Of a DNA stretch of 64,000 nt, positions 29,271 through 58,842 are shown piece after piece. Position 1 is the stretch's first letter. Each line of letters starts with the position of its first letter. The stretch comes from Botryllus schlosseri (lineage: Eukaryota): the NCBI GenBank assembly GCA_051294905.1, contig CM119372.1, positions 6,946,001 to 7,010,000 of the forward strand, written 5' to 3'. The position numbers and the translations under genes were made by a program. The notes under the pieces are model-generated. The model was not told where the DNA came from, did no database searches, and saw nothing but the letters and a program-made list of their open reading frames with translations.

Positions 29271-29299
29271 TGCGTGTTCATATCACGTCGGGGTCACCA
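29271..29299 (+). other. DNA copy of the 3' 29 nt of tRNA-Trp including CCA (extended PBS, not a tRNA gene)
   Basis: T-GCGTG-TTCATAT-CACGT-CGGGGTC-A-CCA = T arm, acceptor strand and CCA; the minus strand reads as the Trp PBS TGGTGACCCCGACGTGAT, 3 nt after the LTR end. Confidence 0.85.
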
Positions 29300-29302
29300 A
29301 AA

Positions 29303-31311: not shown

Positions 31312-32249
31312 CATGTAATTAATTACAATTACTTTTAAACAGGTAATTGATTCAGTAAAGATGTGTTCTTTGACAACCGTAGCGACGTAATTAGCAACAA
31401 TCTCAAGCTATTCATGTTGCATTCCTGATATGTAGAATACCCTTTAATTAAAAAAAACAAACTCGAACGTATTCGAACTATTCCTAATCATGAGTACTGA
31501 AAACTACAAGCACAGAAAAATGTTTCAAGCGACTGTTAAGAACCAAAGGTTTGAGCGAATAACAGCGAATAGGCTACAGACCAGTCAATGAAATGTAATC
31601 AAACGATAAGGCTACTCAGAGCCGAGTCAGGATAATGAAATGTAATTGGTAAGGCGTCAGCGATAAGGATGATACCGATATGGTGCGTACAATTAAAATA
31701 AATGCAAAAGGAAAGAACCTCCTGATAACTAAGAATTACAATACTATGGTTCGCATTTACATTTTCACTTGCTCGGAAACTGTTGGGTTGCATTTGATGA
31801 ACATTAGGGGGCGAAAAGTTTCTGGCCCCAGTAAATTTGGCCAAGATTGGGATAACATCTCTACAAATGCGTGATCAAGTTTGATGAAGCCTTGGTTGGA
31901 AACTTGAATTTTTTTTTGCTATTGTTCCAACAAGCCATGGTACTGGTCAGAGATTTGAAAAAAAACTTTGACCGTAATGTAGGAAATGGTTCAGCACAGA
32001 TTTCAGAAGAGTTTATTTGCAAAATTCACGAGTCAATTTCAAGTCATCAAGTAATCGGTGGCGATAAAAATCACTACTGCATCTTATACATATATGTTCG
32101 GATTGTTCGCGCAACGCTTGTGTAATAACCCGCGTGAGAGCGACCAATCATTTAGTGATCGTGCGTTTTACTGGGCCTCCAATGTTCTCTCACAAATATA
32201 TTGATCGCAAACGAAGTGATCGAAGTTGACAGCATACGTTGTCGTAAAC

Positions 32250-33849: not shown

Positions 33850-35850
33850 TCGTAAACTATAGTATAGTAAAGTAATTTAATAGCAAAATGTCTATTTCTG
33901 TTCTGTGTTCTTAACTTAACCAAACCTCTTGTTTTATTGAAATTGAATTCGCAAATAGTTTATATAGTCCTCAACCATTGGCGCAGGCTGACATTGTATC
34001 ATATCAATTTGCAACAGGGTAATGTATTGCATCTTATCAATTCGTTTCTCTATTCTCTATTTTGGCTGGTAACTATAAACTGAGGCTGTGCAATTACTTA
34101 ATTAGTTTATTAGTTCTACTTAAACGTGAGCGATACAGCGCCTTACTTGCGTGTATGTTTAACTATATATTCGTTCATCGGTTCAAAATCAATGACCACT
34201 CAATCTGTATTTCAGGCAGCTAGCAAAATACAATGACGTAATCACGCCTCATACCTCGAAAAGGCAATTTGACTTGAATTGTGACTTGACTTGACTTGAC
34301 TCGACTGGACTCGAGTCACCCCCGAAAATCGACTGACTTGACTTGACTCGAGTCACCTTCGAAAATCGACTGACTTGACTTGACTCGAGTCAAAATGTGC
34401 AATGACTCGAATTGACTCGTGACTCGAAGGTAGTGACTTGATCCCAACACTGGTTTACTAAGGCCTTATGGCCCCTCGTCGTCATCCTGGTTCGTACCGG
34501 ATATTCACCGGTGCGACGAAAAAATGATTGATTAATTGATTATTTTATCTTGTGATTGTCAGGTTTCCATGAAAATGTAATTGAGATTGTAATTGAGCAA
34601 AATTTTGATCAAATTACAATTACAATTACACAAAATAGAAATGCTTCAATTACAATTACAATTACAAATTACAATTGATCCAACTCTGGTTACCATACGT
34701 CCTCTTTTAAGAGGATTTGTCCTCTTTTCTGAAGATTTAGGTCAGATTTATAGCAAATTGCGAATGATATGCCGTAATATAGCACAGAAGTGACGCTCCG
34801 GCGGGTATTTCGGAGTGAAAAACGGTGATTTTAGCTCTGAGCGAAAAGATGACCCTTTTTTTTTAGTCAACCGATCACAAAGTGGGAAAAATTCACCAGT
34901 TTTGCAAGTCTCAAATTTTATTTCCAAAATATGGTAAGCCTAAATATAAGTCTAATTGCACGGATTCAAAATGGTGCAAATATAGCAAAGAATGCTGCAA
35001 CATTTAAAGTCAAAAGTATCGGATTCCAGGTTGTTCAGAACTTGTTTGTCGCCATTATGTCAAATTGCAAATTACCCGGTTGGTGCTTTCATTTTATTTC
35101 CATGTCGTACTTGTCGTAGGCCTACATGTCAATCCATAATCCGTAAAACATGTCAATCAGTCCACGTGACTAGCGGTCACCCATGAAAGATGAACAAAGG
35201 TGGAGGCTCAAGGCAGGCATTTAGGGAATATTCGGAGCACTACATATTTGTTTGCTCAACTCAAAGGTAAACCTGTCATTTCAGTTTGTGGTGAGCAGAT
35301 CGCCGTGTTTGGAGGTATTTCCAATCAACATAATGAGAAAAACGCAGCGAAATACAAACTCTCGTTGGCTGACTGGGGCCGAGAAAGCGCGGGTTTCCAG
35401 GCACCTGCCAGCGAAGCTGTCAAAACACCAAGGCTCAATGTCACGATACACAGCCCACAGCCCTGGACGAAGACCAGTGTAGTAACGTGAATGACGGTCT
35501 ATCTAATATACGAGACGTGAGTTCTCAAGCAGCCATGTATTCAGTGACGACCCAGCACCGAAGCCCCTGCGATGTCGTCACACCCTAGTGGCGCCATAGA
35601 GCTACCACTACATCTCCCTTCTCGGGACAAGCACAAAAGCTTATAAGCAGCACAAACATATACAACGCAAGCACAGAATGAAGACAATAAACAATCCGAA
35701 TTGAGGCAGTTAGCGGTACAAAGGTATGAAGCAATAGGCAGGCAAGAGGTGAATGAAGAACACAACATATTTACACACACTACTCCTATAACTACATCAG
35801 TACTCCTCGATGTATCTGCGAGGTGCGGTTCTGTTTCGATCCGACCGTTG

Positions 35851-36444
35851 GACCATAGTGTCCTATATGGTGTCGACGCAAGCGAATCTCACGGCTCAGT
35901 GAAGTTGTATCACGTCACAATTTCCTTTTGGCTACAGAGGCAATTTGACGGTCATTTTTGACCGGCTTGCCGAGCATTAAATTTGGTAAAACGGGTATCA
36001 ATCGAAAGCTGACTCTGCACTGATTACGAAAATATAAATTTTATTCCGCTCGTGGCCCTGGAGCTCCCACAATCAGCCTCGAATTTTTCATTGTTATTGA
36101 GATTGGCATTGGGACGCAACAATGCTGTCTGGCGAAACGAGAGGTTAACTCAAGAGAAAAAGGTCCAAAAAGCATTGTTGCGTCCCAATGCCAATCTCCA
36201 TAACAATGAAAAATTCGAGGCTGATTGTGGGGGTTCCAGGGCCGCAAGCGGAATAAAATTTATATTTTCGTTATCAGTGCAGAGTCAGCTTTCGATTGAT
36301 ACCCGTTTTACAAAATTTAATGCTCGGCAAGCCGGTCAAAAATGACCGTCAAATTGCCTGTAGCCAAATGGAAATTGTGACGTGATACAATTTCACTGAG
36401 CCGTGAGATTTGCTTGTGTCGACACCATATAGGACACTATGGTC
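35851..36444. mobile_element. Palindromic (foldback) MITE, 594 bp
   Basis: GACCATAGTGTCCTATATGGTGTCGAC ... GTCGACACCATATAGGACACTATGGTC; arms run almost to the centre; no clear TSD. Partial copies at 15354-15726 and 61312-61445. Confidence 0.85.
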
Positions 36445-37309
36445 GGACTATCGCCGCCTCATGATGGTCATCGCGATCGACACTAGTAGCGCTCGAACTG
36501 CTATCTCCTCCCTGATAGGGAAATTTGAAGAATTCAGCTGCCTCACTGGCGGTAATGTCGACGCCTTCTTGCGCGGTATTCTCCATCTGGTATCTCCGCA
36601 CCATTCGGCGATTTCTTCTGAAGGTGCCTCGCCCAGTTCTGATAACCAAGGATCTGGGTTGAGTGTCAGTGTCAAGTTTTTCCACAACACCCTGCGATTT
36701 GCAGTCCGGAATCCAGACGCGATCTCCCACCTTGAACTCATCTCCAGGTACTACTCTGTGTCTTTTGTTGTAATCACGAGTATCTCTGCGTCGGTAATCT
36801 TCTTCGGCTTTCTTCGCGGCGGTTCGGTCGACAGGCTTGGGCAGAAGATCGTCTGGATGACACGGTACTCTTGTTCGTAGATTGCGGCCCATGCTCAATA
36901 CTGCCGGCGAGTAGCCGATAGCCAATGACGTGTTGGGGTATGTGAGTAGCGCCAGATATTCATCGTCACATTTTCGCAGAAGGTTTTTGATGGTCTGAAC
37001 GGCACGCTCAGCCTCCGAGTTCCCCTGTGGATATCTAGGTGAGGACATGATATGTTCAATTTTCCAGCTTTCGCAAAATAACGCAAAGTCACGGGAAGAG
37101 AACATAGGTGCTCCATCTGTGACCAAAGTCTCGCAGATGCCGTGCCCACTGAAAATCTTCTTGAATTTCAGAATCGTCTCTGCTGCGTTCACTGTTATGG
37201 AGACAATGCAAATCTCAATGTCCCTGGAGTAGCAGTCAACGGCTAGCACGTACATGGAATTCTGGTATTGAAAGAAGTCGGCACCAACACGGGACCAGGG
37301 TCTCTCTGG
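36445..37309 (-). pseudogene. Integrase core and C-terminus of the Mag-like element
   Basis: PERPWSRVGADFFQYQNSMYVLAVDCYS...LVTDGAPMFSS...SSPRYPQGNSEAERAVQTIK; the frame resumes past the MITE as QRSDRNRTAPRRYIEEY*. Confidence 0.9.
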
Positions 37310-37712
37310 TGCAGGAGCTCGTGCTCCTTCTCTCCTATCGGTTATTGAACAATACTACATCACGTGACTTATCGCATAGTTATAACGCAGTGCATATCAC
37401 AGATTGACTCAGAGAGACTCATGTACGCTAACTTACTGCTTATACCCGAATTGATATATAACCCTCCGTACAATACATTTGGAAAGGGCAATTGTTTGTG
37501 TCTATTGAACTACAGTCAAGAACTACACAGGACGTTCGTGTCAGCTACTACCAGTTAAATATATACTGTAAGCTGCTATCCGTAGACCACGGACTTGCCG
37601 TATACAATCGCAGACTGACAGACCGATCTCCATCCCGCATGGTGCCCCTCGAGTACGTGACTTAGTTCAAACGAAAAGACTCTTTGCCGCTCCATCATCG
37701 GACTATTAGCAT

Positions 37713-40700
37713 TGCCGCAATACAATGGTACTTGTCCTGGTGAGTAGAAGTATAGCTAACCAAAGTATTATAGGTTTAGCTGGCTGACTACTTAACCTGC
37801 AGTCCTGTACTGTATCCTGGTGAGATCTTCTTAAGACGCAGATATACGCAAGACATACGAATATATTTCAGACGTTGTTCCAAGTAGGGTTAGCAAATGA
37901 ATCTCATCTCGAGTCAACTAAACATGCGCTTATATAGACTCGTGATCATTGCAATCGGAAGTCTTATTCGTTTCCTAATATGGCGTGGAAAACACAATGT
38001 TGGATATTATCATATGGTCCCGCAAGCATGTGTATCACAGCTGTATCAGCGGTATAAATTGCAACACTCTGCCACAGCTTGGCAGCGGTTTCCTCTGATC
38101 GAATGAAGCCAGATCGGATGAGATCTGCTTGCGGTTAGTAGGTTCATCTAGGTTTGGAGGTTGTCAGTTACCAGTTACCAGCTTATAAACACTCGACATA
38201 ATTCCAATAGGAAGTCAACGTCATATGCTAATATGGGTGTGAAATACACTGTTGTCATAACCCTATACACAGCGGCACCGACCCTTGTTTGAGGGAGCGA
38301 ACATGCAATGAAGCGGAAGTAACTATCATACGTATAGGTGTAGACAACAGTAATTCATTTAGCCAAGACAATTCCACGAGTGAATCAACTCAACGAACAC
38401 TAATACAACACGAGAGATGAACAAGGTTTTCTACAGCTTTTATAATATACAAGTTAGCTAACGAAAACACAACACAATTTTTTTTTAAACCTCCAAACAT
38501 ACCAGGCAATTGTTGCCTAAGAAAATACGAGACTAGCACAAGATCGAAACAATAGCAAAGGCATTAGGCCTATAATCTTTTTGTTTACTTAAGTGGCGTT
38601 GCACTAGTAAGGTTTTTATTAATTGTTTTCTAATATACAAGTCAATCCAATTGAAATACACAGCACAACATCTAACACTAACAATACTAAATAATTCTAG
38701 CCTAACAAAAAATGTTAGAATAACACAATACAATACATCCCAGTAGGCTCAAATATCATGCGTGTTACATCTGCCAAGTCTGGGAGGCTATCCAACTCCA
38801 AAAACAAGTCTTGGCCACCAATATGTACAAGTGTGGCTGTTTAAAAATTCGGTACTTATATACTTCGATCAGTATATAGTACGATTGAGTAAAATCGACG
38901 TTTACTTCAATCTCGCGGTGCACATCTGCTACTCAATAGCTGAGGGACATATATGCCTGTGTGCTGTAGCATATCCAAGGCAGGTTTCAAATGGGGTCTG
39001 GCTTGAACAGATTTCAGGGGATTGGGCTCTCGCAGTACCATAACTGCATATTTCGTACGTGGCGACATAATCGGTCGATTGATGTAGAGAGCGGTATTAC
39101 GTCGGTCGAGGTTGAGTCGGTCGGCCGAATGAGGTAGAGAGCGGTATTACGCCGGTAATCTGCTGTGGACATGTGGTCAACAGTCAGCATCATTTTGCCG
39201 CAGTTGGTAGTGTACTGTCGGCGTCAACCGTTTCCCGATTTCTCGTTCCGTTGCGAATCGGTACCGTTGATTTCGTAACACGAAATTTATGCCAGAATTG
39301 TTCCCCAAGTCGATCGAAAACGTTCGATGTCCCTTTGACTATGAGAGCTTGATGCACCGGAAGCGAAGGCGAGATTGGAACGTGCATGCGCAAATCTGAA
39401 ACAGCACACGACAGCCAGTATCACTTTGAAAAGGACTCAACAACTAGGCTTAGCACGAATACGACACAAGAGAAACAAGCAATAAAATAAACTGAAATAA
39501 ATGTCTCCAAAGCCCTGTAACTACAAGCTATGTGGACTTATGGAGGGTAACTACTTGACGTGAAGAGGTGGTAAAAGTACTAGTAGTTTTGAAAACAGTC
39601 GCAATTCGTTTGCATGGACTGTCAACCTTTGCGTGATTATTATAGGCCAACGTTAATCAAAAATATGTTGGATCGGAAAATTACCATATAGTGTATCCTT
39701 ATTTCGGAAAATGGAGGAATTACTATACCGGTACTTGCCTGTATACTTCAACATGTATGTTCTGCAGACAAAAGAACCTAAAGTATTTAAAGCCCAAAGT
39801 ATGATCCTCGGAATTGAAAGAGAAACACAATACCACATTTTAAAAGCGGAAAATATATTTCATGTCTTTTGTCCAGAAAGTGTCAATGGTGGTCTGCTAA
39901 AACAGGTGCAACTTTAAAAAAGACACCGGAGTTCACTTATCCTGATCAGCACATGTCAAGGCTGCTAGATTACGATACAATTGTAATTTGCCAGATTGCA
40001 AAACGGTAGCTTCAAGTGTTTTGATGGGCCATATTTCTGTGATGAAATATTTGATATGGGCGGCAATGCCGTATGAGCGGAACAGCACAATACGGAACCT
40101 AATTTATATTCACCGACATTTTGCGGAAACATATTTGTCAATTTACAACGACTGTGCGCGAAGCGAAAAAAGTCCTGGCTTCACTTGACTTTGATGAAAA
40201 TTAATGTCGGTACTCCGTGAAACAGACCTGAAATTCCTCAGGCTATCTTCTTTATTGGAGGATCACACTACTTCTACTTGACAAACTGAATAGCGAAAAG
40301 TAAGTAAGTAGATCACAAAATATTACGAAGTAGAAGTAGAAGTAGAGGAAATCATATCTACTTGAGTAAGTACAAAAAGTAGCGGAAAACTACTTGAGTA
40401 CTTCAAAAAAATAGAAGTACTTCATTACGGGCCACCTCTGTTGACGTGACGTAAGGCAGGGTAATTCAGTAATCCAAATGAAATAAACAAAGGCTGCACC
40501 TAACAGCATTTAAGGCCGTAAAGGTGTAATATAAACGATTGGCGATATGAGAAGCAGACAACTCACGCAAGTACTGAATTAAAACATGCGGAGATATACG
40601 TGTGATAAAATGCTATCATAATCCTTCCAGGCTAAGGATCCACCTTACTGGACAATCTAAGAACGTCTCAGTAAGCTACGTGGCGCGTCGATTCAACTAT

Positions 40701-43700
40701 ATACTTTAACAATCATGTAATGAGATTTGAATTTGAGTTACAGACGCGTTCTGCGAATGAGAATGCCATAATTATATAAAAAATAATTATTGAACATTTT
40801 TCGTGGGATACGGATATTTAGAATATTTGAACCGAAATGAGCTGTTCCGTTATCTATAAAGTAGCTAGACGTGATAATTCTGACCAAACGAACGAACGGC
40901 CGAGCCGACACTAGTGACCGCCAGGAAAATAAGCTTTCTGTACTATAGCAAACAGACTGTCGGAAGCATTTCTGATCAATGATGAAATTCCCATGACAAA
41001 CCAATAACGGTGCACTCCATTGGCGTCAACTGAAATATAATTATAATGCAGAATTTGCAATAAGTGGAATAAGCGATTTCTGAATCACATATAGCCTATA
41101 TTTGATGTGCAACGTTACATTCGAATGTATTCAAATTGGATACAAGATTTCGGTATTTAGAATTAGATCGTTCCCGTACCTGCAGGAGCGTCGCTAAAAA
41201 GTTTAATGCTGTTGCTGGTTTCATTGAGACGTGCTGCAGCTGCCCCAAACCCAACTACAGCATGTGTCCGACTAACAGCGGTTCGGTATGAGGAAAAAAT
41301 CCATAACCAAACATCTAAAGCTAATCCCAGTGACTTCATCTCAATTCTTGTAACATAAGGTAACGTTGTCCGAACTGCATTAAAATGGGGGAATTCTTTG
41401 ACAGCAAACCGGGGGGATAGCGAATTTTGCGCAGTGAGCTGAATCCCATACAACCGCGGTGCTAAGATCATTTAAACAATGTCCTTCATTCGATAAACAT
41501 AGCCAGATAAATCACACAATTCGGAACGCAATTTGAGGTTAAAGAACCGTATACCAATTTTAAAGCATGTACGTACAATCAATTACGCAGAAATCCTATA
41601 TGTCCACTGGACGCTCAAGGCCAATCCAGTGTCGTATGAAATCGAATATGGCGCGTTACTGAGCCAACTTCCCTATAACTACCCAAGCGAACGCACTAAG
41701 CGCTCTAGGATACCTCAAAAATAAACGAAGTTTAGCAGAAAATTCATAATTCGCACTAACGCAAGATCACGCCAACGTGAGAAGTGAAAGAAAATTCAAA
41801 ACCACTTTCTTTATCGAGGCGCGCAAACATGTACGCTTCTAGAAGTAGGAACAATGGACGGCGTGTATTTCTAAATTACAACGTCCTGAGTCTGCGATAA
41901 ACGCTGTATCGCTGAGAAATTTGAACGGCAATACCAATTTATTAAGTTTGCCTACAATGTCAAAATTTAGCTCGTACAATTTATTTTGTCAAGCCTGTAA
42001 GAGGATCTGAGACAATTCTGTATTAAAAACGAGCGCGTTTAATTTTGAATTAACTGCGCAAGGTGAAATCTCGCGGAGTATATCCTGTTCGCGACACGTA
42101 TACGTCGTGTTCGGTATCGCGGGAAACAGGAAAAGGTGTCATGTAACTCGAATTTGAGTGGAAGCAATCATGTTCTGAACGAAAAACGCGGTCGTCTGGC
42201 GGAAAAAAAAATAAGAATTTGCCCGCGGTCTGTAAATCGCGCCATGTATGGGAAACGTGTCTCTGACGTCACAACGTCCACGTGGTATCGACTGCACCAC
42301 GCCCAAGGCTGAAATCGGTGAAATAAAACATGGCGATTTTGAGGCCAAAAGTAATTCATGTTCACGAAACAGTCTCATGTACAATGGACCCTGTAAAACT
42401 AATACAGAAACAAAAATAACCCGGTTAAACTACGAAGCGGGTAGAGCCAGTACACCACACCAAACGCAGGATTGCTGTATACAGATTCTACCTCAACTAA
42501 AAATCCTGAGCCTGCACTGATTCTGTCAAATTTTTACAAAAATCAATCCAGTGCCAAGAGCGAACATCAGTACATTGGCGTGCTTTTTTATCGTAATTCA
42601 TGTGACGCCAGCACATAAGGTGATTTCTCGCTGAAGATTTAAGCGAGTTTTTGATTGAATGAAAAAGCTGTAATTCTTTCCGAATTCTACTGAGAGTCAA
42701 TTTGAAAGGCACGAATCGCACGGTTTGCGCGCAAGCGCCCAAGCCCACGACGTTACTCTGCTGTGCACTATCTAACATTTGAGCAGAAATTAATTGGGCC
42801 ATAGTCAGCAGCGCGTAAACTAGACGCAAGCGTAATCTAGTCGAAACTTCGAGTTGTGTGGCGCGCGCGTTTTTATTCAACTGCGATTTCTCATCAAAAA
42901 GGAAATTCCCCTGTACGACGTTGGTGTTAATTTGTGAATCAACATTTGAAAGCGAACTAGCCAACCAACGTTCAACATTTGCGTGGGTATCTAATTTATG
43001 ATCCTGAATAACACTTAAATCAGACACGCGCTGTGAAGCTGAATCACATATTACAACAGGAAATATCAAATCTGAGAAGTTATCGCTGTGAGACCCATCG
43101 TCATTCATTCCGTCAATCTTACCTGGTAAAGCTCTTACGGGCTTAACAATGTTAGGGATATCAACGTTAGAATTAACGACTGTAGGTGTAGTTACTAGCC
43201 AAGGAGACATAACATGTGCACAAATATACCATAATATATAACATGTAATACACGAATTGGCTAGGGAATTATATGCTGTCGCGATACTTATTTCAGAAAT
43301 GCAATACAAGCACGTACCGTATTGATCAATGTCCGGAATCCTGATAATTCGATAGTTCGATGGCAACGTCAAAAGTCCTCGTACTCAACGTAGTAGCGTT
43401 TAAGATATCGCTCGGGTCATCATGCCGCAATACAATGGTATTTGTCCTGGTGAGTAGAAGTATAGCTAACCAAAGTATTATAGGTTTAGCTGGCTGACTA
43501 CTTAACCTGGAGTCCTGTACTGTATCCTGGTGAGATCTTCTTAAGACGCAGATATACGCAAGACATACGAATATATTTCAGACGTTGTTCCAAGTAGGGT
43601 TAGCAAATGAATCTCATCTCGAGTCAACTAAACATGCGCTTATATAGACTCGTGATCATTGCAATCGGAAGTCTTATTCGTTTCCTAATATGGCGTGGAA

Positions 43701-43987
43701 AACACAATGTTGGATATTATCATATGGTCCCGCAAGCAGGTGTATCACAGCTGTATCAGCGGTATAAATTGCAACACTCTGCCACAGCTTGGCAGCGGTT
43801 TCCTCTGATCGAATGAAGCCAGATCGGATGAGATCTGCTTACGGTTAGTAGGTTCATCTAGATTTGGAGGTTGTCAGTTACCAGTTACCAGCTTATAAAC
43901 ACTCGACATAATTCCAATAGGAAGTCAACGTCATATGCTAATATGGGTGTGAAATACACTGTTGTCATAACCCTATACACAGCGGCA
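37713..43987 (-). mobile_element. Second-level nested LTR element, non-autonomous, clade uncertain
   Basis: 565-bp LTRs TGCCGC...GCGGCA at 37713-38277 and 43423-43987, about 5 differences; 4-bp TSD GCAT; PBS-like TGATGACCCGAGCGAT and purine-rich AAACAAGGGTCGG on minus strand. Confidence 0.88.
42497..43372 (-). CDS. 291-codon ORF in the gag position of the nested LTR element, no recognised domain
   Basis: Open frame starting ~30 nt after the PBS; assignment by position only. Confidence 0.4.
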   Translation of the reverse strand: MTLPSNYRIIRIPDIDQYGTCLYCISEISIATAYNSLANSCITCYILWYICAHVMSPWLVTTPTVVNSNVDIPNIVKPVRALPGKIDGMNDDGSHSDNFSDLIFPVVICDSASQRVSDLSVIQDHKLDTHANVERWLASSLSNVDSQINTNVVQGNFLFDEKSQLNKNARATQLEVSTRLRLRLVYALLTMAQLISAQMLDSAQQSNVVGLGACAQTVRFVPFKLTLSRIRKELQLFHSIKNSLKSSARNHLMCWRHMNYDKKARQCTDVRSWHWIDFCKNLTESVQAQDF

Positions 43988-44602
43988 GCATTCACTTGGA
44001 ACGATACGGAAATTCACAAAAACACCAGGACTGCAAGACACATCCGGTATTTACCCCTTTTATATGATTTCTGGATTTGTTTGTCGGCTGGCAGTTCGCA
44101 TATACATTTGACTGTAATTTTCCGTGTTATAAAATTTCGCTTTTTGATATTTCGATCATATATTCGCAAATTTATTGCGGTTTTGGTACCATGGCAACCA
44201 ACAGCGAATCAGATGAGGGTGTAGCTTATAAAATAGCGCATAATTACGATCTTAAATACTGCGGGGATGGACCTGCTATTGGCTTCGGCACATCTGATGA
44301 TAATTTACATCACGAAAATCAAAATGTTGATCAGTCCGCCCTTCTGGCAGACGCCGGCGATACTGATGTCGTTTCCCGCGGAGTGAACGATGAAATTCCC
44401 CGGAATGCACGACATATACCCGTGATCTGATTCCTAGCCTACTAATTTGATTGTTTGACTCGTTTTTAGTTATTTTAAAGACGCAACTTTTGATCGAAAA
44501 TCGTCTACTTTATGCTTTATTAATTTAAATAGGTTTTCCGAAAATTTCAATATTACATCACAGTTCGCACGCTCTACATTACACAATCCTACTGCATTTT
44601 AC

Positions 44603-44865
44603 TTGATAATTGTTTTTGACTATGGAACTAACCGAGTATTCCTAATTGATTCGGGAATTGACACGAGCTTCATAAAAGCTCTGACTGATTCGTTTGGTAA
44701 TTTCACCGTTGCGTTCTGCAGCCCAAATGATACAATACTTATCGGTAACGGTCAATCGGAATTGACAATGTCATTTATTAGTTCTTCGTTTATATATAAA
44801 TTCATTTTTGAGATCGCATCGCTACCCTATTGAATAATTGCCTCTGACTTCCTTCGTTATTTTAA
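44603..44865 (+). pseudogene. Gypsy aspartic protease remnant
   Basis: RVFLIDSGIDTSFI...FCSPNDTILIGNGQSEL...FIFEIASLPY*IIASDFLRYF (DSG active site and IIGxDFL-like motif). Confidence 0.75.
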
Positions 44866-47800
44866 ACATTCGCGAGCGCACGATTACAGATGAATACAAT
44901 CAGATAACGGTCTCAGCTCTTTCAGACGCCCATAATTCGATTTGCTATCTAACGTAACTTCAGATTGTATGAATGACCTTATCGCGGCGTGCTATATATC
45001 ACGCTACCAATAAGGGCTTTTTGACTCCGAACTCAGCATACCGCATTTGTATGTATTCTAATTTGATATACATTCAATACATGACGCGTAATTTTCTGGA
45101 TCGTTTAACCCGACGATTCGCCTACTCTAATGCACTGAATAATGTACGTAAATACAAAATTTAGGACAACTGTCCCGCACAAAAACTTCGAGTTCCGGAC
45201 GATGCTTGACGGCGCCTCGGAATTTGCAAGATTCGACCTATCATCCATTTTCGCAGAAAACTAGTTTCTTTTTCATTTCAGTTTTGCTTCATTGACTTCG
45301 CGAAAATCGTCTTGATTACCTCGCGTAACCTAGGTTTCTTTCGTTTTTTTTGGTTACCTCATTATTCATTATTTACTTACTTACTTGATTAATTTTTCAT
45401 TGTACATTTTTACATTTCAAGACATGGCTGCTAACATCTGGTCACCGAAATCCGTGAAACATTTTGTATAGTCACGTGTCTCTTAATTCTCCCTGCCCAT
45501 TTTATAGCTACTTGGGGAACTCGTTAATTAGGTATACGGTTGAAGTACTGGGTGTGTATGGGTCTTCGCTTTCAGCTCCCAGGTCAATCGTGTGTAATGC
45601 TGTGAGCATGGGGAAATTACGTGTCCAAGTAATTCATCTTGTGTTGGCTTTGACATCTCGCCAAACCGTTTTTAGATATGGGGACTGTTAGTGCGCAATT
45701 CAGCAATTCTCTGGACGCGTGGAATTTATGATTTGCATCGCTCCAGTTTAAAACTCATTCTATTTACTTTCACTCTATTGCATAACGATGCTGAAGTAGA
45801 ATTCCGCTTACCCGTCTCGCCCGTACGCTTTTTTTTATCGAAATGACCCAGGACCGGACACTATATAGTGTATATAATGTATTATACGGTTTTTGGATAA
45901 AGTAATTATACAGTGTTGGAGAAATTTGATCTAACACTCACTGTTAAACGATGTATCTTACCGCTCGGTACGTCATTATTATTTTAGACTTCAAAGCACA
46001 TTGAGTAGCTGGGCCCACGTTAACACTTTCAATATGTTGAGTGTGCGTGCTGTGATGATTAATTGCTTGTTATTCCTTTTCTTTCGATCCGTTGGCAAAT
46101 CAAGTTCTTGATTAAATCACGTCAACATTACTAATCTCGATGATTTGATATCGATACTAGATTTCGCTTGCCAGCAAAATGCACGTGATCCGATGTACTT
46201 TGCTGACCAGTTTGATTTCTACCTTTTTTTTCATTATTTTTACGTGAGGTTACCTACGTCACATAGGTGACGTCACCACCACCACTTGAATTGATTGCAG
46301 CGGATAGATGTACTAGTTTCCTACTTAAATGAAGGAGCCATCCATCATCTGTTTCGCTGCCTGCCACACGTTGTTTAATTGTTGCCTTATTATTGTTTGC
46401 ATGCTTTTGTTATTATTATTTTCTTATTGTTACTCGTGTTTACGGCGCGAGCATGTATTGGTTTCATTGATACTGCTGCCGACAATTGTCTTCCAGAAAT
46501 CGTATTTACGCCCCGTGACCGCACCAAATTGCCGAACACCAACTGCTCATGCTCACGAAGGACATTACTAGTTACCTGCCCGCGATGCCCAAATGACGCG
46601 CTGAATCACTTATCTCAAGTGCGGCCTACCTGGCGGAAGGAATCGCATTCACGATTACAACGTGCGGTTCTAAGGACGCTGTTTCAACCGGAATCTTACC
46701 GCACCATTTCCGCTTCGCGTGCATCGAAAGTCTACAAACCCGGTTGGTCATAACGCGATTACATATGGCCATTACATTGGCAGGATTATCAATACATGAA
46801 ATGAGCATAAACTTCTGTAAATATTTCGGCAATTTGGCGTTTTTTTTCGCACGGCTTTGTAAATAACTTCGTTCTTTGACATTACATGACGAACGGACTT
46901 TCCCATTCGCGCCATTAGCGACACATGTGATCGTCACATCCCCTAATGGATGCTGGATGGCTGGACATTGATTTATCCCTCAGAAGAACAACTGTAATGT
47001 GTTTATTATTCCCCTTTTTTATGGTTGCATGTATTTTGCCTGGCGACCATAACTACCGCTCCTTGTCGGCAACCCCGCGTCATTAATTGGATTTGGTTTC
47101 GTTTTTTTAAAAATTTATGACTAGACTCAGACACGGCTTTGTTCACGCAGATTTCTCAAGCCACCGATTTTGCTGTTAACGAATTCTCACAACTCTTGCA
47201 TAAAATTCGCATAATATGACTTCATCATGTCTCAGACCCCTTACATCAATCCGAAAATAATTCCCCCCTAATTGTCGATTAACGAGTTGAGTGATTCGGC
47301 TTTTGTAAACCCGGACTCGCAGATACGGGATTTCCGATGACCCCTTAAAACCGTCTTTCAAGTATGCCACGCCGCACACATTCACTTTCTGCACACATGG
47401 CGCGGTGGTTATGACGCTACTCGCCCTTTACTTTATTGTTCTTTGTTTCTTATAATAATACAAAAAAAAGTTTTGCCTTTTCCAACCCATGCTGCTATCT
47501 CATGATTTCTTGGACACGGGATTCGACCTCACATGGTGACCACGTGCTACCTTCAATCCGCACATTGTACCGTTACCGTATTTTAATTATTGCATTTCAT
47601 ATTCGTGCCTCTGTTCTATTCAGTTACCTGTATGATTGGAATATCGTTATTACTCCGTTCTTGTTGGTACAGTGCAGGAGCTCGTGCTCCTTCTCTCCTA
47701 TCGGTTATTGAACAATACTACATCACGTGACTTATCGCATAGTTATAACCCAGTGCATATCAAAGATTGACTCGGAGAGACTCATGTACGCAAACTTACT

Positions 47801-47958
47801 GCTTATACCCGAATTGATATAACCGTCCGTACAATACATTTGGAAAGGGCAATTGTTTGTGGCTATAGAACTACAGTCAAGAACTACACAGGACGTTCGT
47901 GTCAGCTACTACCAGGTATATACTGTAAGCTGCTATCCGTAGACCACGGACTTGCCGT

Positions 47959-48322
47959 TGCGGTTGTATCGTCCTGAAGTAGCAAAGTAGCGTAACCTGT
48001 GTATTGTAGGTAATTGCTGCGCTATACTTAACTTGACGTCAACTCTGTAGTAAGTTCTTGAACCAAGAGATTGCTCAATACAAGATTTATTAGTCGTCGA
48101 TGTTTGTAGTAGGTAGCGTAAAATGAGTCTGATCCAAACGAGAGAGACTCTATAGTTTTGCAGTCTCTCGAACGAGAGAGTGACTACGTGCAATATTGCG
48201 TCATTAGTATTTACTAAAGCATGCTTGATGTGTAGTACGTGATTTAATTATAATAAGTTCTCCATGCTAATTATTGGTTGTTTGTTTGTTAACTTAAACC
48301 CTTAAGTTGCCGAGCAACTGCA
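47959..48322. mobile_element. Solo LTR (364 bp) inserted in the 3' LTR of the 37310-48364 element
   Basis: TGCGGTTG...CAACTGCA with 4-bp TSD CCGT; the empty site is visible in the other LTR at ~37598. Confidence 0.9.
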
Positions 48323-48364
48323 CCGTATACAATCGCAGACTGACAGACCGATCTCCATCCTGCA

Positions 48365-48749
48365 CTGGGAAGGATGCTGACAGCATCGGTTTCACCCTTT
48401 CTCGCTGATGCTCCGTGCACTTTTCGCAATTTCTGACGGTTTCTTCAATGTCCTTAGAAATTCCAGGCCACCAGCATGACTGTGATGCATTGAGTCGGGA
48501 TTTTGTCACCCCTTGCTGAGCATCATGAAGGTCTCTTAAAACGTCTTGTCTCAGCGTACAGGGGATCACCAAGCGATTCCCTTTAAGCAGGAGTCCGTCA
48601 TGAGAAGATAAACAGGCTCTATCATTCCAGTATGGCCTAAGTGGGCCATGCAGCGTCTCTTTGCATTTCAGCCACCCTGAGGATACATATTGCATCACTG
48701 TGCGCAATACGTAATCTTTCTAGAGCTCTGAGCGAATTTCATCCAACCG
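48365..48749 (-). pseudogene. Integrase zinc-finger region of the Mag-like element
   Basis: RLDEIRSEL*KDYVLRTVMQYVSSGW...RLVIPCTLRQDVLRDLHDAQQGVTK...WWPGISKDIEETVRNCEKC...PMLSASFP. Confidence 0.9.
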
Positions 48750-48790
48750 TCATTTCTATGGCGTGGGTTCGAATCCCACCGCTGCCACCA
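48749..48790 (+). other. DNA copy of the 3' ~42 nt of tRNA-Leu including CCA (extended PBS, not a tRNA gene)
   Basis: GT-CAT-TTCT-ATG-GC (variable arm) GTGGG-TTCGAAT-CCCAC (T arm) CGCTGCC-A-CCA, abutting the 5' LTR. Confidence 0.85.
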
Positions 48791-49218
48791 TGTAGTAACG
48801 TGACTGACGGTATGTCTAATATACGAGACGTGAGTTCTCAAGCAGCCATGTATTCAGTGACGACCCAGCACCGAAGCACCTGCGATGTCGTCACACCCTA
48901 GTGGCGCCATAGAGCTGCCACTACAACCAGCTTCGTAGTATCTCATTCAAGGCCTAGATTTTGACGTCTACATAGCAAAGGGGGTCTGGGTTTGTGTGAT
49001 GTAAATGCTTCGCATTGTTTTGAATAATGACACTGAATGAATAAATGGTAGAATGTTTTGGTAAACTAACCCCCACCCTCTCCTGGCCGAATTCTAACAC
49101 ATCCAATATAGCAGCTTTTGTTAACAATGTAATTCACGGTTGTCTATTTAGAAATAGGTTGCATATGATAGTTCAAACTCTTGGCTCAGCCCGCCAAGTT
49201 TTTTTGCTTATTATTTGA

Positions 49219-52200
49219 CCCAATGGGGCTGTTCCACTTCATTTTGAACACGCGGTGGCGACAAAGGTAACTCGACCCAAATCTGTTTTGTTGCTATATG
49301 CTTTACTATGGGAATGGACTAAACATGGACCGAATTTCGTCTCTTGGCGTACAACGAGGATGGTGAAAGTATCCATATCAATATAAATCAGGCACTTCTT
49401 CGATGGCAGTCAGATATCGAAAAGTGTTCACCATAAGCACCAATGTATGTTTTCCATGAACACAAATATATATTTATAAACGTCAAAATAAATTGTGTTT
49501 TTTGTGCCTTTGGGGAGACGGACATTAGGGTGGGGGAAAGGGAGATCGGAAGTGGGTTAGGTTAGCGTCAAAGTTGGGGTTAGGGTATCCCAAGATTAGG
49601 GTTGGAGAAGGGGGATATTCGGGTGGGGGGGATATTAGGGTTAGGGGAAAGGGGGATATTAGGGTTGGGGAAATGGGATATCGGAGGTGGGTTAGGGTAT
49701 CCCAAGATTAGGGTTGCGGAAGGGGGATATTAGGGTTGGGGGATTGGAGGAGGGTTAGGGTATCCCAAGATTAGGGTTGGGGAAGGGGGTATTTGGGTTC
49801 AGGAAATGGGGTGTTAGGGTCAAAGTTGGGTTAGGGTATCCCAAGATTAGGGTTGGGGAAGGGGGAATTAGGGTTGGGGAAAGTGGGGATTGGAGGTGGG
49901 TTAGGTTTAATGTTGGGTTAGCGTTAGGGTATCCCAAGATTAGGGTTGGGGAAGGGGGATATTAGGGTTGGAGGAAAGGGGGATATTAGGGTTGGGGGAA
50001 AGGGAGATTGGAGGCGGGTTAAACCCCGGTTAAGAGTAATCTAACCCCAACTTTGAACCTAACCCACCTCCAACCCCGCTTTCCCCCTCCCCAACATCCC
50101 ACTTCCCTAACCCTAATATCCTCCCTCCTGCAACCGCCCTTTCCCCCAACCCTGATATCCCCCTCCCCAACCCTAATATCCCACTTCCCTAACCCTAATA
50201 TCCTCCCTCCTGCAACCCTAATATCCCCACTAACCCAACCCTAATATCCCCCTCTCACAACCCTAATATACCCCTCCCGCAACCCTAATATCCCCCTCCT
50301 CAACCCTAATATACCACTTCCCTAACCCTAATATCCTCCCTCCCACGACCCTAATATCCCCTAACCCCAACCCTAATATTCCCCTTCCCCAACCCTAATA
50401 TCCCCCTAAGCCATCCCTAATATCCCCCTCCCGCTACACTGATATCCCCCTCCTCCACCCTAATATGCCAACCCTAATATTGGGATACCCACAACCAAAC
50501 TTTGACCCTAACCCTCTCCAAACGCAAAAACAATATATTTTGACGTTTATAAATTTTTATTCGTGTTCATGGAAAACATTCATTGGTCATCATGGTTAAC
50601 ACTTTTCGATCTCTGACTGCCATCGAAGAAGTGCCATAAATCATCCATATGGATATCGAATAACTGTTAGCCGACGAAAATGAGGCTATTTCTTGGCGTC
50701 TTGTCCTCGTGCTGGACATTGGCACCTGGCAGGTTGCAGCTTACCGGTACATTGCTGTACACTTTCCGAGAGTCGTCGATATGGCAAGTGTTATATGCCT
50801 CATTGTGTAAGGATGACGGTCATTTGATCGCAGAAGATGCATCAATTAGAAACAAAAAGTTATCAGGGGGATGGGTTCCGTTTACGAAGAAGAGGTATGG
50901 ATGCCTGGTCCTCTTCTGGAAAAGTAGTCTGCAGAATATCATTTCACCAACATGATTTATCCTGCTTCGCTGTGTGTTGTGGAAAATTATGCTATGTACA
51001 TTGTACATTTGCTGCTGTGAGGTCCTACAACATATAAAAATCATACGTTTGAATAACAATGAAGCTGATGAAACTTCAGTCAAGGCAGCCTCATCTATTC
51101 TGTTTTCAATGAAAGAGGTTGCAGAAGAGACGTCAGTGTCAAAAGCTGTTGCAAAAGAATAGACCGTACAAGTCATCAGTCACGTCATCTTGTTCTGACA
51201 ATTCAACAATTCGGAAAAGGGGATAGCTGAATCTACAGAGATTCACCCGTTATTGAAAGAAGCATACGCTATAGTTGATAGTGTAAAGCAGCCATCATTC
51301 CAATTATAAATCCTGAACACTCAGCACTGTCGGATATTGAAAGCATGGCGTCATTTGTGTACTTCCAACTGAAAGACTTGGCAATCAGGCTTAGTTGTAA
51401 GACAACTATCTCATATTACCGGTACTTCAACAAAACAGGACTATTGTCGGTTGCTCACTACATGGACTCTTATTATACGTATCTGATTATCTGATACCTA
51501 TTGTGTTGGTAGCACAACGAACTTTGCTACAACCTTCAAGATTTTCAAGTACAAACTCGATGATCAAAAATGACCAAGGCTCACAAGCTCATATTTGTGT
51601 TTCACAATTCTTGGATATGGTAATGCTATTTGTATCAATTTGGTTTACACCATAGTATTTTGCTTTTTGTCTCAGTCCCATACATGGGTTTCTCAAATAG
51701 CAGGTTGACATTCCTTCTTCCTAAGAATTATGTTAATATGTAATAATGAGCATGCATAAATCCGTTGCTTAGAATGTTATAATCCAATGTTTATGTGCTT
51801 ACCATACTATTTATTTTCGGGTCGGGCAAAAAAATATTCGATAACCTCTGCTTTATAGACTATACGCTTTGCTACTTCAGGTTATAACCGTTCCATTTTA
51901 TTCAACAAAATAACGGTAACAATACAACTGGTACAACCTTTAATTGTCAATGATCAGAGAGGATGAGATCTATAGTTGGTATTATTAGTATTATAACTGC
52001 TACAATACTACTGGTAAACTGTTTAATTGTCAATCATGAGAAAGGATGAGATCTAGTTGGTATTATCAGTATTTTATCATTTAAAAACACCAACAGATAG
52101 TGATGAGATTGAAGAATAGGAAGGTATTGGAAGGACATTAAGTCTTTCAACCAGACAGCTATTTGGTTAAGGTAATATTATATCTAGAAATGGTTTGTGT

Positions 52201-53018: not shown

Positions 53019-56000
53019 CTAAAAAAGAAGAATTTATTGCACACATCTTGCTAGCATGATAGAAAATCTGACACTTATAACAAGCTTCAGCAGCAGCATA
53101 TGGTCCTGAACAACTAGAAGATTTTACGCTTTTTTGAATTATAGATTAGAATTATAGCTATACATATATTTCCAAGTTACAATAGAATTAGAATTATAGC
53201 TCCATTTTTTTCAAATTAGATTATAATTATATATATGCAGGTTTATTCCAAATCAGATTGGGATTAGAATTGCTGACTTTGGGTAAAATTTGAAAATTGA
53301 ATTAGGTTCATATGAAATCATACAGTTCGTTATTATAAGCTCGTGGAAAGCAAACGTTTGTACAACAGCCAAGCTTGGCTCTTTTTGCACTATACAGTTC
53401 TGTAGCATTTCCTAAATGATTTACTTTTACTTAGGAAAATCGCTACTACAACTTGTGCTGTACGCTACAATTTTGAGGTACTCCTTGATTTTGCCTACTT
53501 GCACTACTTTTACAAGGAGCTATGATTTTAGACTGCTACTTCTTGATAATAATTTCCAGTTTATCAAGGCAAACTTGATTCAAAATTATATTTTTACTGC
53601 AAAATAGCTACTAATACTTGCACTAGGGTAGAAATGTACGTTGCTTCTACACCATTTCTACACAACACAATCACTACTTTGACTAACCCTGTTGGCGACA
53701 TCGGGTCTTGCATTTATTCATACAGACCTTGCAGCACGGGAGAATCCACCAGTTCTGTTTCATCTTCATCTGAATATGATATATTTTTTAGAACCCCATC
53801 TTTAACATTCAGGACATATATGGGGCCGAACACGTGACCGGAAACGGAGTCTACGCTGCTACGCTTCTTTCTTGCCCCGCAACGACGGTATGGGGTATCG
53901 CAGTTCTGAAAACCGAGGTTTCTTATCAAATTGGAAGATGCGATATATACATGCATAAGGTGGTTTGCCGATATCGTACATCGAAAATTCAAGGAATATC
54001 AAACCAATAGTTGTCAGATCTCAAAAGAACTGCGGATTTACGGAATATCAAGCTTACAAACTTAACTTTAGATTTGCGTTTTCATAATCCAAGAAACCAC
54101 ACATTTACGGAATATCAAGCTACGGAGTTATAAGATTTCAGATTTCACCGTTTTGAGATTTCGAAAACGGCAGATTTACGGAATATCAAATCCAGAGTTT
54201 TCAGTTATCAGAAATTTCAGATTTCCAAAAAAACGGAGACTTACCGAATATATAGTTTCAACATTTGAGATTTCAGTTTCATATGTCAAATAATCGCAGA
54301 TTTACGGAATATCAAGCTCAGAGTTTCAAGATTTAGGATTCAATATTTCAGTTTTCAGATAACGCAGTTTCCAGATTACGAAAAACGGCAATTTATGGAA
54401 TAACAAGTCAAGAGTTCAAGTTTTCAAATTTAAGATTTATGATCACTGAACACCTCCGGTGTACCAACATTTATCAACAGCTTTCAGGTGGAATCGAAGA
54501 GTTCAAGAAGTCATTATAGGCCTATCTGTCGTTGTATCGGTTGCTTCAATATTGTCTAGTCGGGATTCAGAGAACAAGTTTTCCACAATTTAGCCATCCC
54601 ATTTAGCGTAAAACGACTCGAAGCGGTTCGGTTCAGAAGAGATAACTTACTAGAACGCAGTCTTCCAGCGTGGCGTGGATGTAGAATTTACCGCACGCTG
54701 TCAAATGTGGGACTCTGAACGACAGGCAAACCCCGCCCCCGGAGCTGACGGCCGCCGTGGACAGGTATCGACTGGAAGCATTCTCGTAGCAGCCGTTGGA
54801 GATCAGATCCAGCGCCGAAGGCAGGGTTGAGTCGGTTGAGCAAGATAGAAATAGTCGGACGAGGCGAATAGCTGATAACTGAAAAGAAATTGTCGTTATA
54901 ATATATCAATTATATTTGCAGTTCTTTTTTCATCGCACTATATATATTAGACCAGGGGGGGGGGCAACCTTCTCGGCCAAAGGGACATTTTGGAGTTTGT
55001 TCATATCGCTTCCGTGATCGTAATTATCACATCAACCGGCGGGAATACTGTTAGTATCATGGCAGCAGAGTTTTTCGAAAATTGCTGAATCAGCGGAGTA
55101 GACGGTCGTTTTCGGTTTGTCACAAAGCGTATATTTTGCAGTTTTTACGAAGTCAAACTAGAATTAAGACGGAAAGTTTTTTTTCACAGATTAGAAGTAA
55201 GAATTACTGAATTTGCGAAAACTTGAACATCAAATCATATTTCATTGTTATAAGCAAGACAATGGCAAATGTCTGTACACCAAGCTTGGCTCTTTACGCA
55301 CCGCTTAGTTCTCCTGTAGCATTTCCTGGAAAACCAGTAATTAGATGAGAATTAGAGCGAAGAAATATTCGACAAATTAAGAAAAATTAGATTGCTGGCA
55401 ATCCGCTCTGAATAACTAGAGCTAGAATAATGTAGTTCCGTCATAACTTGCCTTCGTGCGTGGCATGATTCTCAAGTGCATCTTTTCGTTGACCGTGTAC
55501 AATGCCCTGCCGTTGAGAGAGAACTGGTCAGGACACGCGCCAGGGCAGTAAGAGCCAGACTTACAGGCGTCTATCAAACCGAACCCTTTCCTCACTCCAC
55601 GCCGTGTCACTGTGGGCACTGTATCAGTCCTGAGAATGTGGAACGGGTGCACCATCAGATAATACCATATTTTTGGATTTGATAAAAAAGGGAGTGTGCG
55701 ATTTACTCCGGATTTGGATCAAATATGGATTCACGATTATTTTGAAGGCAGATTTGAACTTGGACATGAAATTCTACTCACTGCCAATTTTCATGCGACT
55801 TTCAAAATTTCATTCATTACAGCAGTGGTTCTCAAACTCATTTTAGACACGCCCCCCTTTATGATAGTGAAAATTTCATTTCACCTATTTCACCTAATTC
55901 AAGCCTACACACCAAATTTGGTTAAATTCCAACCAGTAACCGCATTGCTACAGGAGAAGAAAGTTTCTATTCATTATGTAAAAATAAATAACCAAAAATT

Positions 56001-58842
56001 TTAAAATTTTCTGTTCTCCCATCAAAGTGTTGGGTTGTCTATAGAAACGATGTTCACCAAATTTGGTTCAATTCCAACCAGTGGATGCGGAGTCATCGCA
56101 GTCACAAAATTTGGATTATGAATAAAATAGTATTGACGGTGACCAATTCTTTAAATATTTATAGTATTTATATATATTTATATATTTATAATATTTATAT
56201 TCATAGTATAATATTTATATTTATTGTATTTATAATACTATTTTATTCAAATCCAAATTTTTCGACGGCAATAACTCCACTCCTACTGGTTGGAATTCAA
56301 CCAAATTTGGTGAGGTGCCAGTAAACTCGCCCCAAAGTAAATTCGGCCCAGGCTAATTCGGCCATTACATCAGTAAATTCGGCCCACCGAGAATATTGTA
56401 TTAAAATGTATTACCAACCGTTAACAGGAATTAATTACATAATTATACTATTATTAAGTGATTTGGATGTCAGGGCATGCGTAGATCGCGTAATCACGGG
56501 AGATAGCGCGGATATTCACGGGGACCGAATTTACCGACGGCCGAATTCACCGGTCAATTCACTGGTTACTCGGTCAATTCTGCCCTCGGAGAATTTTTTA
56601 TAAAAATGTATTACCAACTATTAATGTGAATTAATTTCATAATTATATTATTATCAAGTGATTTGGAGAACAGGGTATGCGTATAAATATATATATGTAT
56701 ATATATATGCCGATGTTTACGGGGCCGAATTTACCGACAGCCGAATTCAATCGGTATGTTCGGCCCTCGGAGAACATTGTGTGAAATTGTATTACGAACT
56801 AATAATGTGTATTATTATATTACATAATTATAATATTATCAAGTGATTTGGAGGTTAGGGGTTAGGTTTAGGGTTAGGATTAGCGTTAGGGTTAGGGTTA
56901 GGATTAGGTTAGGGTTAGGATTAGGGTTAGGTTAGGGTTAGGTTAGGGTTAGGGTTAGGTTAGGATTAGGGTTAGGGTTAGGGTTAGGGTTAGGATTAGG
57001 ATTAGGGTTAGGTTAGGATTAGGGTAAGGGTTCAGGTTAGATAACGGTATTGTAACTGTTATTGGTACTCTGGCCCTGGCCGAATTTACCGAGGGCCGAA
57101 TTCACCGACGGCCGAAGTGACCGAGGGCCGAATTAGACGGGCCGAATTTACCTTGGGCCGAGTTTACTGGCAATCATTTGGTGAACATCGTTTCCATAGA
57201 CAACCTAACAGCTAACACTACCACAAAAAATTTTCAAATTTTTTGTTATTTATTTTTCTATAATATATAGAAACTTTCTTCTGTAGCAATGCGGCTACTG
57301 GTTGGAATAGAACCGAATTTGGTGTGTAGGCTTAAATTAGGTAACCTAACAAGTAGCCAGTGCGATTTGAGAAAAAAAGTCATTTTTAAAGATCCTTAAT
57401 ACTCACGCTGGCAAGAGGGAAGTCACTATCCGGTACTGCCTCTGATACTCGCATACAAAGCTGACGACCGGAATCGCCATATGCGCGGATCCAACCATCT
57501 TGTTCAACCATATTCGTCCGGACACCAGCGTGCTGCCAGCGCTTTGATTCACAACCACGCCACATTTCGTGAAAGGCAAGGGAACCAGAAATTTATGATG
57601 GGTGCCGTTGTCTAAAGCAAGGGTGTGTTTTCAGCTTTTCCAATTACAATAGAATTAGAGCTATTAAGTTTTCTTTCTAAATAATGGAGTAGAATGAGTT
57701 ATAGCTTCAGCTATTTTCAAATTGGATTATCATTTGAATTTCAGCTACACATTATGAGTAGAATTACAGTTATTCCCAAATTAGATGAAAAATAGAATTA
57801 TGGCTACACAGGTGGTTTTAACAAACGAAGGGTTTAATTAGAATTACAGCTAAAGTTGTTTTCAAATTAGCTTAGAATTAGAATTACATATGCAATGTCT
57901 TTCCAAGTCAAATAAGAATTAGAGCTACAGTTTTTTTGCATACTAGAATTACAACACTGAATTGGCAAAAATTCAATTCAATTACGGATTAGAAAGAAGC
58001 AACAAAATGAAGTTGAGCTCATATCAAATCAGAGTTCCTTCTCATAAGTACGAGAGCGGATATGTATGTACGCTTGTACAGCATGCATGGTTCGCTTCAC
58101 ACTGTACAGGTACAGTTCTGTATATTTTTTTGGAAAATGACAAGTTATTTTAGAATTGAAATTAAGACCATAAAATCATTTCACAAATTAGAGTAACCGG
58201 TATTTCGCTTCAAATAATCTAATTAGACCAGTGGTTCTCAACATTTTTTCCTCCAGCGCCCCTATAAAATTATCGTGCTCCAGCGCCCCCCACCTCATAT
58301 TGCAAGGACTGTAATAAAGACAATGGGTAAGAGGGAGGGCTGTAACAGCACTTCGTCAGCCGCTAAAAAAAAACGACCGTCTTGCGCACTCACCGCGTGA
58401 TAAATCAAACTTCTGAAGGCTTTGCCCCGAGAACCCCGTCGCATGATTTCCATGGTCAGGAAAGTTTGTGACCTGGTCGCCCTATAGACGCCAAAATTTT
58501 CTAGAATGCATGAGTGAATAGGTGGTAATTGCATATATATGTCGCTATAAACTTTTCAGGGGGGGCGCTGGAGGCAAGGTTCAGTAAGAACCACTGAATT
58601 AGACAGCTAGAATTATCTAGTTTTCAAGTCTGGTTGAACAATGGCAAACTATCCATGTTGTACTTGCGCACCTTAGCGTCCTGGTCACTTACCTACGGCC
58701 AGGCAGATATATGACGAGGATATAGAATGAGAACGAGTCATGAACATCGAAAAATCGGAATTTCCTGAGCTGTATTCATCCACCAGCCGAGAATCCACGT
58801 CAACTGTTATCACATCGGCTCCGCATATTACCTCGGGTGCAG
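52906..58842 (-). CDS. Zona pellucida (ZP) domain membrane protein, six exons identified, N-terminus not found
   Basis: Exons 58842-58693, 57611-57407, 55629-55452, 54878-54651, 53905-53728, 53018-52906 splice in phase without stops: APEVICGADVITVDVD (ZP-N start), FTKCG, VSFVCEY, LISNGC, FYIHATLEDC, furin site RKKR, EHP FGPIYVL, TM SIFIFVVVIVATSL. Confidence 0.88.
53728..53905 (-). CDS. ZP protein exon (furin site and EHP)
   Basis: NCDTPYRRCGARKKRSSVDSVSGHVFGPIYVL...; ttttcag acceptor, GT donor. Confidence 0.85.
53990..54430. repeat. Intronic degenerate ~60-70 bp tandem repeat
   Basis: GATTTACGGAATATCAAG core recurs about 7 times. Confidence 0.75.
54651..54878 (-). CDS. ZP protein exon (ZP-C)
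   Basis: LSAIRLVRLFLSCSTD...LDLISNGCYEN...CLSFRVPHLTACGKFYIHATLEDCVL; GTAAGT donor. Confidence 0.85.
55452..55629 (-). CDS. ZP protein exon (linker and ZP-C start)
   Basis: TDTVPTVTRRG...CKSGSYCPGACPDQFSLNGRALYTVNEKMHLRI; AAG/GCAAGT (GC) donor. Confidence 0.82.
56314..57175. mobile_element. Mutator-like MITE carrying a TTAGGG array
   Basis: TIR TGCCAGTAAACTCG ... CGAGTTTACTGGCA, GCCGAATT subterminal motifs, exact 9-bp TSD ATTTGGTGA. Confidence 0.85.
56852..57040 (+). repeat. Interstitial telomere-like array (TTAGGG/TTAGGA/TTAGG)
   Basis: About 30 units, mixed variants. Confidence 0.92.
57407..57611 (-). CDS. ZP protein exon (ZP-N)
   Basis: DNGTHHKFLVPLPFTKCGVVV...IPVVSFVCEYQRQYRIVTSLLPA; ctttag acceptor, GTGAGT donor. 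Confidence 0.88.
58229..58596. mobile_element. Charlie-type hAT MITE
   Basis: TIR CAGTGGTTCT ... AGAACCACTG; exact TSD AATTAGAC. Confidence 0.88.
58693..58842 (-). CDS. ZP protein exon (ZP-N start)
   Basis: APEVICGADVITVDVDSRLVDEY...SYICLAV; tttcag acceptor, GTAAGT donor; phase 1-1. Confidence 0.88.

Follow-up and report, generated by a model that had tools for sequence, protein, structure and literature searches.

Plus-strand synthesis usually stops at m1A58 of the tRNA primer after 18 nt; products that read through this position are known in vitro, and they cannot pair with the leader (PMC13191261, PMC8599865). As described in these sources, the behaviour of plus-strand strong-stop DNA explains both the 18-nt limit expected of a primer copy and the failure of a longer copy to be transferred normally. 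The consequence of such read-through is documented in HIV-1. According to Hardy et al. 2025, 44 defective proviruses (one of their own and 43 from GenBank) retain intact LTRs and carry at the deletion junction tRNA inserts extending 7–54 nt beyond the primer site, compared with 24 nt in the copy described here, and position 58 is changed in five of the 44 (PMC12657518). In Ty1 and Ty3, the genomic primer site is described as short, and transfer does not normally involve the strand that has copied the primer, which is a dead end (PMC5371799).

The element analysed here lies on the minus strand of the window, that is, of the whole 64,000-nt stretch of DNA under study. It is a dead, internally deleted copy of a gypsy retrotransposon, and the accident that probably produced it is one already described for HIV-1. 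Of the four features by which membership in this class was judged, three were found at the locus, namely complete LTRs, a primer site running past position 58 and a tRNA piece at the junction. The fourth concerns the parent, which should lack the extension; the parent was not found, and the extension is absent from the 23 more distant relatives with a readable site. The likeness to delayed second-strand transfer in HIV-1 lies in intact LTRs, in a primer site extending past m1A58, in a tRNA piece that bounds a large deletion and in the integration competence of the product (PMC12657518). Unlike the HIV-1 proviruses, the copy belongs to a Ty3/gypsy element of an invertebrate-type genome, is fixed in the germ line and aged, has a tRNA-Leu type of primer and shows no mismatch at position 58. 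Its probable origin is a single event in which copying of the primer ran past position 58, second-strand transfer took place at an internal site and integration was normal. A search of open-access literature, consisting mostly of recent papers, found no report of a deletion caused by an over-copied primer in LTR retrotransposons. Deletions from strand-transfer errors in retroviral vectors were reportedly described by Pulsinelli and Temin in 1991.

The tRNA-like stretch and the deletion junction

On the plus strand, the 42 nt at 48749-48790 correspond to the 3′-terminal part of a mature class II tRNA, and the LTR starts at 48791. The initial annotation had described a primer site of about 42 nt continuing as a complete T arm and a variable-arm hairpin, and all of these parts are present in the letters of the plus strand: the variable-arm hairpin at 48751-48760, the T arm at 48763-48779, with a 5-bp stem and a 7-nt loop containing the invariant T-loop bases, the 7-nt acceptor strand at 48780-48786 with A next to it at the discriminator position, and CCA at 48788-48790, which directly abuts the LTR. 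In the orientation of the element (minus strand), the canonical primer-binding site occupies 48773-48790. It comprises 18 nt, is the complement of tRNA positions 76-59 and is identical by eye at 17 of the 18 positions to the primer site of the related locus L029. The further 24 nt at 48749-48772 (minus strand) are complementary to positions 58 to approximately 43 of the established tRNA numbering, comprising the remaining T arm and the variable arm. As judged by structure and invariant bases, the primer site runs on into the tRNA past position 58, which is an unchanged A in the copy.

Both hairpins form in the predicted fold, the energy of which is unremarkable (z −1.4). In a chance test on 87 related loci, a T-arm signature at the matching spacing from TGG was found at 1 of 13,934 TGG sites. 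ARAGORN and Rfam called no tRNA in the region; a 3′ piece alone would not be expected to give a call, and the result does not count against the tRNA origin. The tRNA is presumably of the Leu type, as the long variable arm and A73 point there. Primer sites in related loci agree with this putative assignment: L029 and L048 share the primer type of the copy, for 18 nt (with the 17 matches given above) and for 11 nt, respectively (by eye). The copied part of the tRNA appears to end at about position 43-44, the top of the anticodon stem. The known secondary stops lie elsewhere, at positions 55, 54 and 37 (PMC13191261, PMC8599865). For tRNA-Leu, the literature searched gave no established stop at a modified position 43-44; Um44 has been described for yeast tRNA-Ser (PMC10275265).

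The pol homology starts at 48749, the last base of the tRNA piece, in five of six long relatives compared by tblastn (residue 911 of 1,341 in P0122, 869 of 1,310 in P0123, 936 of 1,381 in P0131, 926 of 1,431 in P0139 and 141 of 569 in P0121). In the sixth relative, P0127, the homology continues to 48806 via a weak gapped extension. Base 48749 belongs both to the tRNA piece and to the first pol codon, so that the overlap at the joint is at least one base. In P0122 the corresponding point is located 55 residues past RNase H and 61 residues ahead of the zinc finger. The tRNA piece ends at the deletion junction and is joined directly to pol upstream of the integrase zinc finger, as had been proposed. 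Approximately 2.7 kb is gone, since homology to a relative of 1,341 aa begins only at about residue 910; estimated from the relatives, the loss is about 2.6–2.8 kb, and the copy lacks the leader, gag, protease, RT and RNase H. The earlier claim that the last four of these are missing agrees with the search of the whole window, where their parts were matched by none of the 61 polyproteins longer than 1,200 aa (E ≤ 1e-3).

Two other explanations of the junction region were tried and rejected. Relocation of gag-RT to another place in the window was dismissed on the same result with the 61 long queries. An origin of the extension from degenerate pol was dismissed as the nine codons before the joint carry two stops and their in-register match to L003 pol DNA is limited to 5 of 27 bases (by eye).

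The tRNA complement lies in the sense strand and is continuous with the LTR, including CCA, as is expected from copying of an attached primer, and the register of CCA with the LTR end gives further support to this origin. It is very improbable that the tRNA sequence entered after integration, as a cDNA that patched a DNA break at which everything from gag to RNase H was lost. A mosquito element is described as having tRNA copies at its primer site, which were read as an insertion (PMC3286476), but the tRNA piece in the present copy is continuous, stands in register with both the primer site and the LTR end, and is accompanied by neither duplication nor filler.

Architecture and decay of the element

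The element spans 13,448 nt of the minus strand with its inserts and about 1.8 kb without them. The element is therefore not a compact unit, nor is its integrase intact: the span is long because two nested LTR elements and a palindrome split a decayed integrase. The 5′ LTR (48791-48925) and the 3′ LTR (35478-35612), both on the minus strand, are 135 nt each, have TG...CA ends and differ at 5 of the 135 sites. They are flanked by the 5-bp target-site duplication ACCAG, at 48926-48930 on the 5′ side and at 35473-35477 on the 3′ side. The two LTRs and the duplication had been called intact; this holds in that both LTRs are complete and ACCAG is found at both ends. Integration was normal, as follows from the TG...CA ends and the 5-bp duplication.

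The first pol piece (48369-48749, minus strand) includes the RNase H-integrase linker and the integrase zinc finger (PF17921) and is interrupted by a stop codon at 48720-48722. A nested LTR element of 11,055 nt (37310-48364, plus strand) lies between the zinc finger and the core of the integrase. Its plus-strand LTRs, at 37310-37639 and 47673-48364 (the second with an insert at 47959-48322), are 95% identical, and it is bounded by a 4-bp target duplication (37306-37309 and 48365-48368). A third LTR element (37713-43987) is located within the second and has 565-nt LTRs (37713-38277 and 43423-43987), which are 99.1% identical, and a 4-bp duplication. The second pol piece (36445-37309, minus strand) contains the decayed integrase core (PF00665) and C-terminal part. 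A palindromic MITE-like insert of 594 nt (35851-36444) interrupts the integrase frame near its end, and the last integrase codons follow at 35800-35850 (minus strand), residues 292-311 of the related protein P0001 aligning to 35859-35800. The polypurine tract (35613-35623, minus strand) adjoins the 3′ LTR. Both the zinc finger and the core of the integrase were detected in the copy by the Pfam search.

Attribution to Ty3/gypsy agrees with the direct LTRs with TG...CA ends, the target duplication, the primer site and the polypurine tract. The H2C2 and rve integrase domains are also present, RT itself being deleted in the copy, and the order RT-RNase H-integrase is found in all three close full-length relatives.

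Within the second element, a start resembling a primer site directly follows the first LTR (window 37640-37712), and 73 nt further on the third element cuts in. In the interior of the second element, none of the 61 long polyprotein queries gave a coding match. A 295-codon frame at 42497-43384 (minus strand), just inside the third element, has no Pfam match and is possibly a gag-like remnant.

The integrase of the copy differs from P0001 at 13 of 236 residues. As compared with 21 relatives, P0001 has the commoner residue at 11 of the 13 positions and the copy at none, and five of the 13 fall in columns that are at least 90% conserved (104 of the 236 columns are such). The decay of the integrase looks unselected in this alignment. 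The LTRs have diverged by 3.7%, with a 95% interval of 1.2–8.4%, and the integrase difference, which we estimate at about 2% at the DNA level, is compatible with this value. The decay appears to fit the age of the insertion given by the LTRs, the wide interval leaving room for brief amplification or a short-lived amplified family. An LTR at 15965-16099 was considered as a second insertion and rejected: it has the same flank, lies within a 99.7% inverted duplicate and shows no differences from the 3′ LTR.

These data bear on another explanation, namely that read-through and deletion occurred once in an ancestor and that the resulting 1.8-kb element, supplied with the proteins of the parent, was afterwards amplified as a non-autonomous family. 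The retention of the LTRs, primer site and polypurine tract is consistent with such a history, as is the presence of a 94%-identical integrase on another contig of 1,481 nt. However, the integrase has decayed approximately as the LTR age predicts, without clear excess, and the sole other LTR copy in the window is the segmental duplicate mentioned above. It is unlikely that the copy descends from an amplified derivative, and a single event remains the preferred explanation.

Relatives, their primer sites and the parent

Of the 87 related loci, 30 with a gag start were scanned, and 23 of them (about 20 distinct) have a readable boundary between LTR and primer site; seven were dropped. The 23 loci are 33–59% identical to the copy in integrase, so the comparison tests the extension at the level of the clade only. 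An extension into the T arm was found in none of the 23, including L029 and L048, which share the primer type of the copy. At this level, the long extension is not a feature of the clade as represented by these sequences. The primer sites of most relatives agree among themselves over only 11–14 nt (by eye).

It can be supposed that a long stretch complementary to the tRNA had been fixed earlier in the leader of the parent family, where it perhaps served to dock the primer over a greater length, and that an ordinary later deletion joined it to pol. A deletion beginning inside a longer tRNA match would look identical, and short over-extension sequences are described as conserved beside lentiviral primer sites (PMC13191261). 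Nevertheless, the lentiviral extension amounts to a few bases, against 24 in the copy, and neither any of the 23 relatives nor the short agreement of most of their sites speaks for a long parental one, which makes this origin quite unlikely.

The 11–14-nt sites of most relatives resemble those of Ty1 and Ty3 in this respect, and Ty3 is described as copying only 12 nt of its primer (PMC5371799). If the clade works like Ty1 and Ty3, the copy would record the rescue of a dead-end strand. The primer sites of L010, L029 and L033 look complete to 18 nt, as opposed to the agreement over 11–14 nt in the 20 other loci (by eye). These sites may be milder products of primer copying up to m1A58.

The closest protein, P0001, is 94% identical, contains the integrase only and is a singleton without an accession, originating from the 1,481-nt contig. 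Among proteins that reach upstream of the joint, the best are 65–66% identical, and none of the representatives is closer. No relatives were found in viral contigs, and neither viral nor prokaryote contigs gave an exact match to the LTR; the direct parent of the element was not found among proteins, viral contigs or prokaryote contigs. At least 20 of the 24 listed public runs (from nine studies) contain part of 48372-49200 (shares 0.24–0.58), and no RNA run is among those listed; these matches have no bearing on copy number or on the parent. Three of the related loci (L081, L082 and L085), which lie in contigs bearing the titles of bacterial genomes, are complete gypsy elements of animal type, and their LTRs are near-identical. 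It is likely that these contigs are host DNA binned with bacteria.

The name ‘K02A2.6-like’ is in use for Mag-type elements. Assignment of the copy to the Mag lineage is a lead, suggested by its features together with this naming. The likeness consists of short LTRs, a 5-bp duplication, a tRNA-Leu primer and, in the relatives, a single gag-pol frame of about 1,300–1,400 aa (PMC3286476, PMC8220671); the copy differs in having no RT. The 135-nt LTR, the 5-bp duplication and the Leu-type primer site agree with Table 1 of PMC3286476, where a tRNA-Leu or tRNA-Ser primer is given.

Origin of the deletion and other features of the window

The initial annotation explained the junction by an over-extended plus-strand strong stop that jumped to an internal site, the product then integrating normally. 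This explanation is supported by the features shared with the HIV-1 class, by the absence of an extension from all 23 relatives and by the TG...CA ends with the 5-bp duplication. Plus-strand DNA started at the polypurine tract would have copied the LTR and then the attached tRNA-Leu, running beyond position 58 through the T arm and the variable arm to a stop at the top of the anticodon stem. As the extra tail would not have matched the normal leader, its 3′ end would have encountered the minus strand at an internal place, about 1.5 kb from the tract within the RNase H-integrase linker. The plus-strand end may then have primed synthesis at the internal site, a stalled minus strand may have switched onto the plus strand, or both may have been extended mutually; the sequence is compatible with a jump by either strand or both and cannot tell between them. 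The product, with both LTRs and lacking everything from the leader to RNase H, integrated with a 5-bp duplication. Afterwards the copy would have decayed and acquired the two nested LTR elements and the palindromic insert that the locus now contains.

The choice of landing site may have depended on a cryptic sequence of the RNase H-integrase linker that resembles a primer site and stands in exact register with the real one. Three of the four residues at codons −13 to −10 are the commonest ones among 59 relatives, a coincidence noticed after the fact, and the DNA identity to L003 is 13/42 over the 42 nt and 7/12 in the codon block (by eye). The idea of an in-register cryptic site is weak.

A second over-long primer copy was observed in the window. 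About 29–33 nt at 29267-29299 (plus strand) read as a tRNA 3′ end with T arm, acceptor strand, A73 and CCA, extending past position 58, where T is found instead of A. The tRNA is presumably tRNA-Trp-like. This copy adjoins an inverted 167-nt piece of a different LTR (29303-29469) and lies upstream of a frame (29483-30721) that encodes the integrase of a different gypsy clade. The far end of the copy joins a duplicated flank, which suggests aberrant integration.

The element is probably a germ-line fossil of an error of reverse transcription that has so far been documented mainly in HIV-1, and it indicates that a gypsy integrase accepts such an over-copied product. Taken singly, a dead copy alters little. 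Collected across the genome, such copies would show from sequence alone where reverse transcription stops on native primer tRNAs, and they would document one concrete route to internally deleted elements. It is conceivable, though doubtful, that gypsy copies in this animal are repeatedly deleted through over-copying of the primer and that the modification state of germ-line tRNAs can be read from the fossils. If this is true, the record would consist of the end points and of the match or mismatch at position 58, which is unchanged in the Leu copy and changed in the Trp-like copy.

The window also contains several large repeats. The regions 25010-29266 and 31057-35314 form a direct repeat of 4.26 kb (99.8%), each unit starting with the same LTR of about 255 nt, and an empty site for this LTR is found near 20260, in an inverted duplicate. 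The latter (15348-20943) duplicates 24327-36229 in inverted orientation (99.7%) and contains a single repeat unit; the copy of the 3′ LTR of the element lies in this duplicate, which ends inside the palindromic insert and is either a real duplication or an assembly artefact. Large palindromic elements, the arms of which contain telomere-like G-rich repeats, are located at 49370-50655 and 55892-57342.
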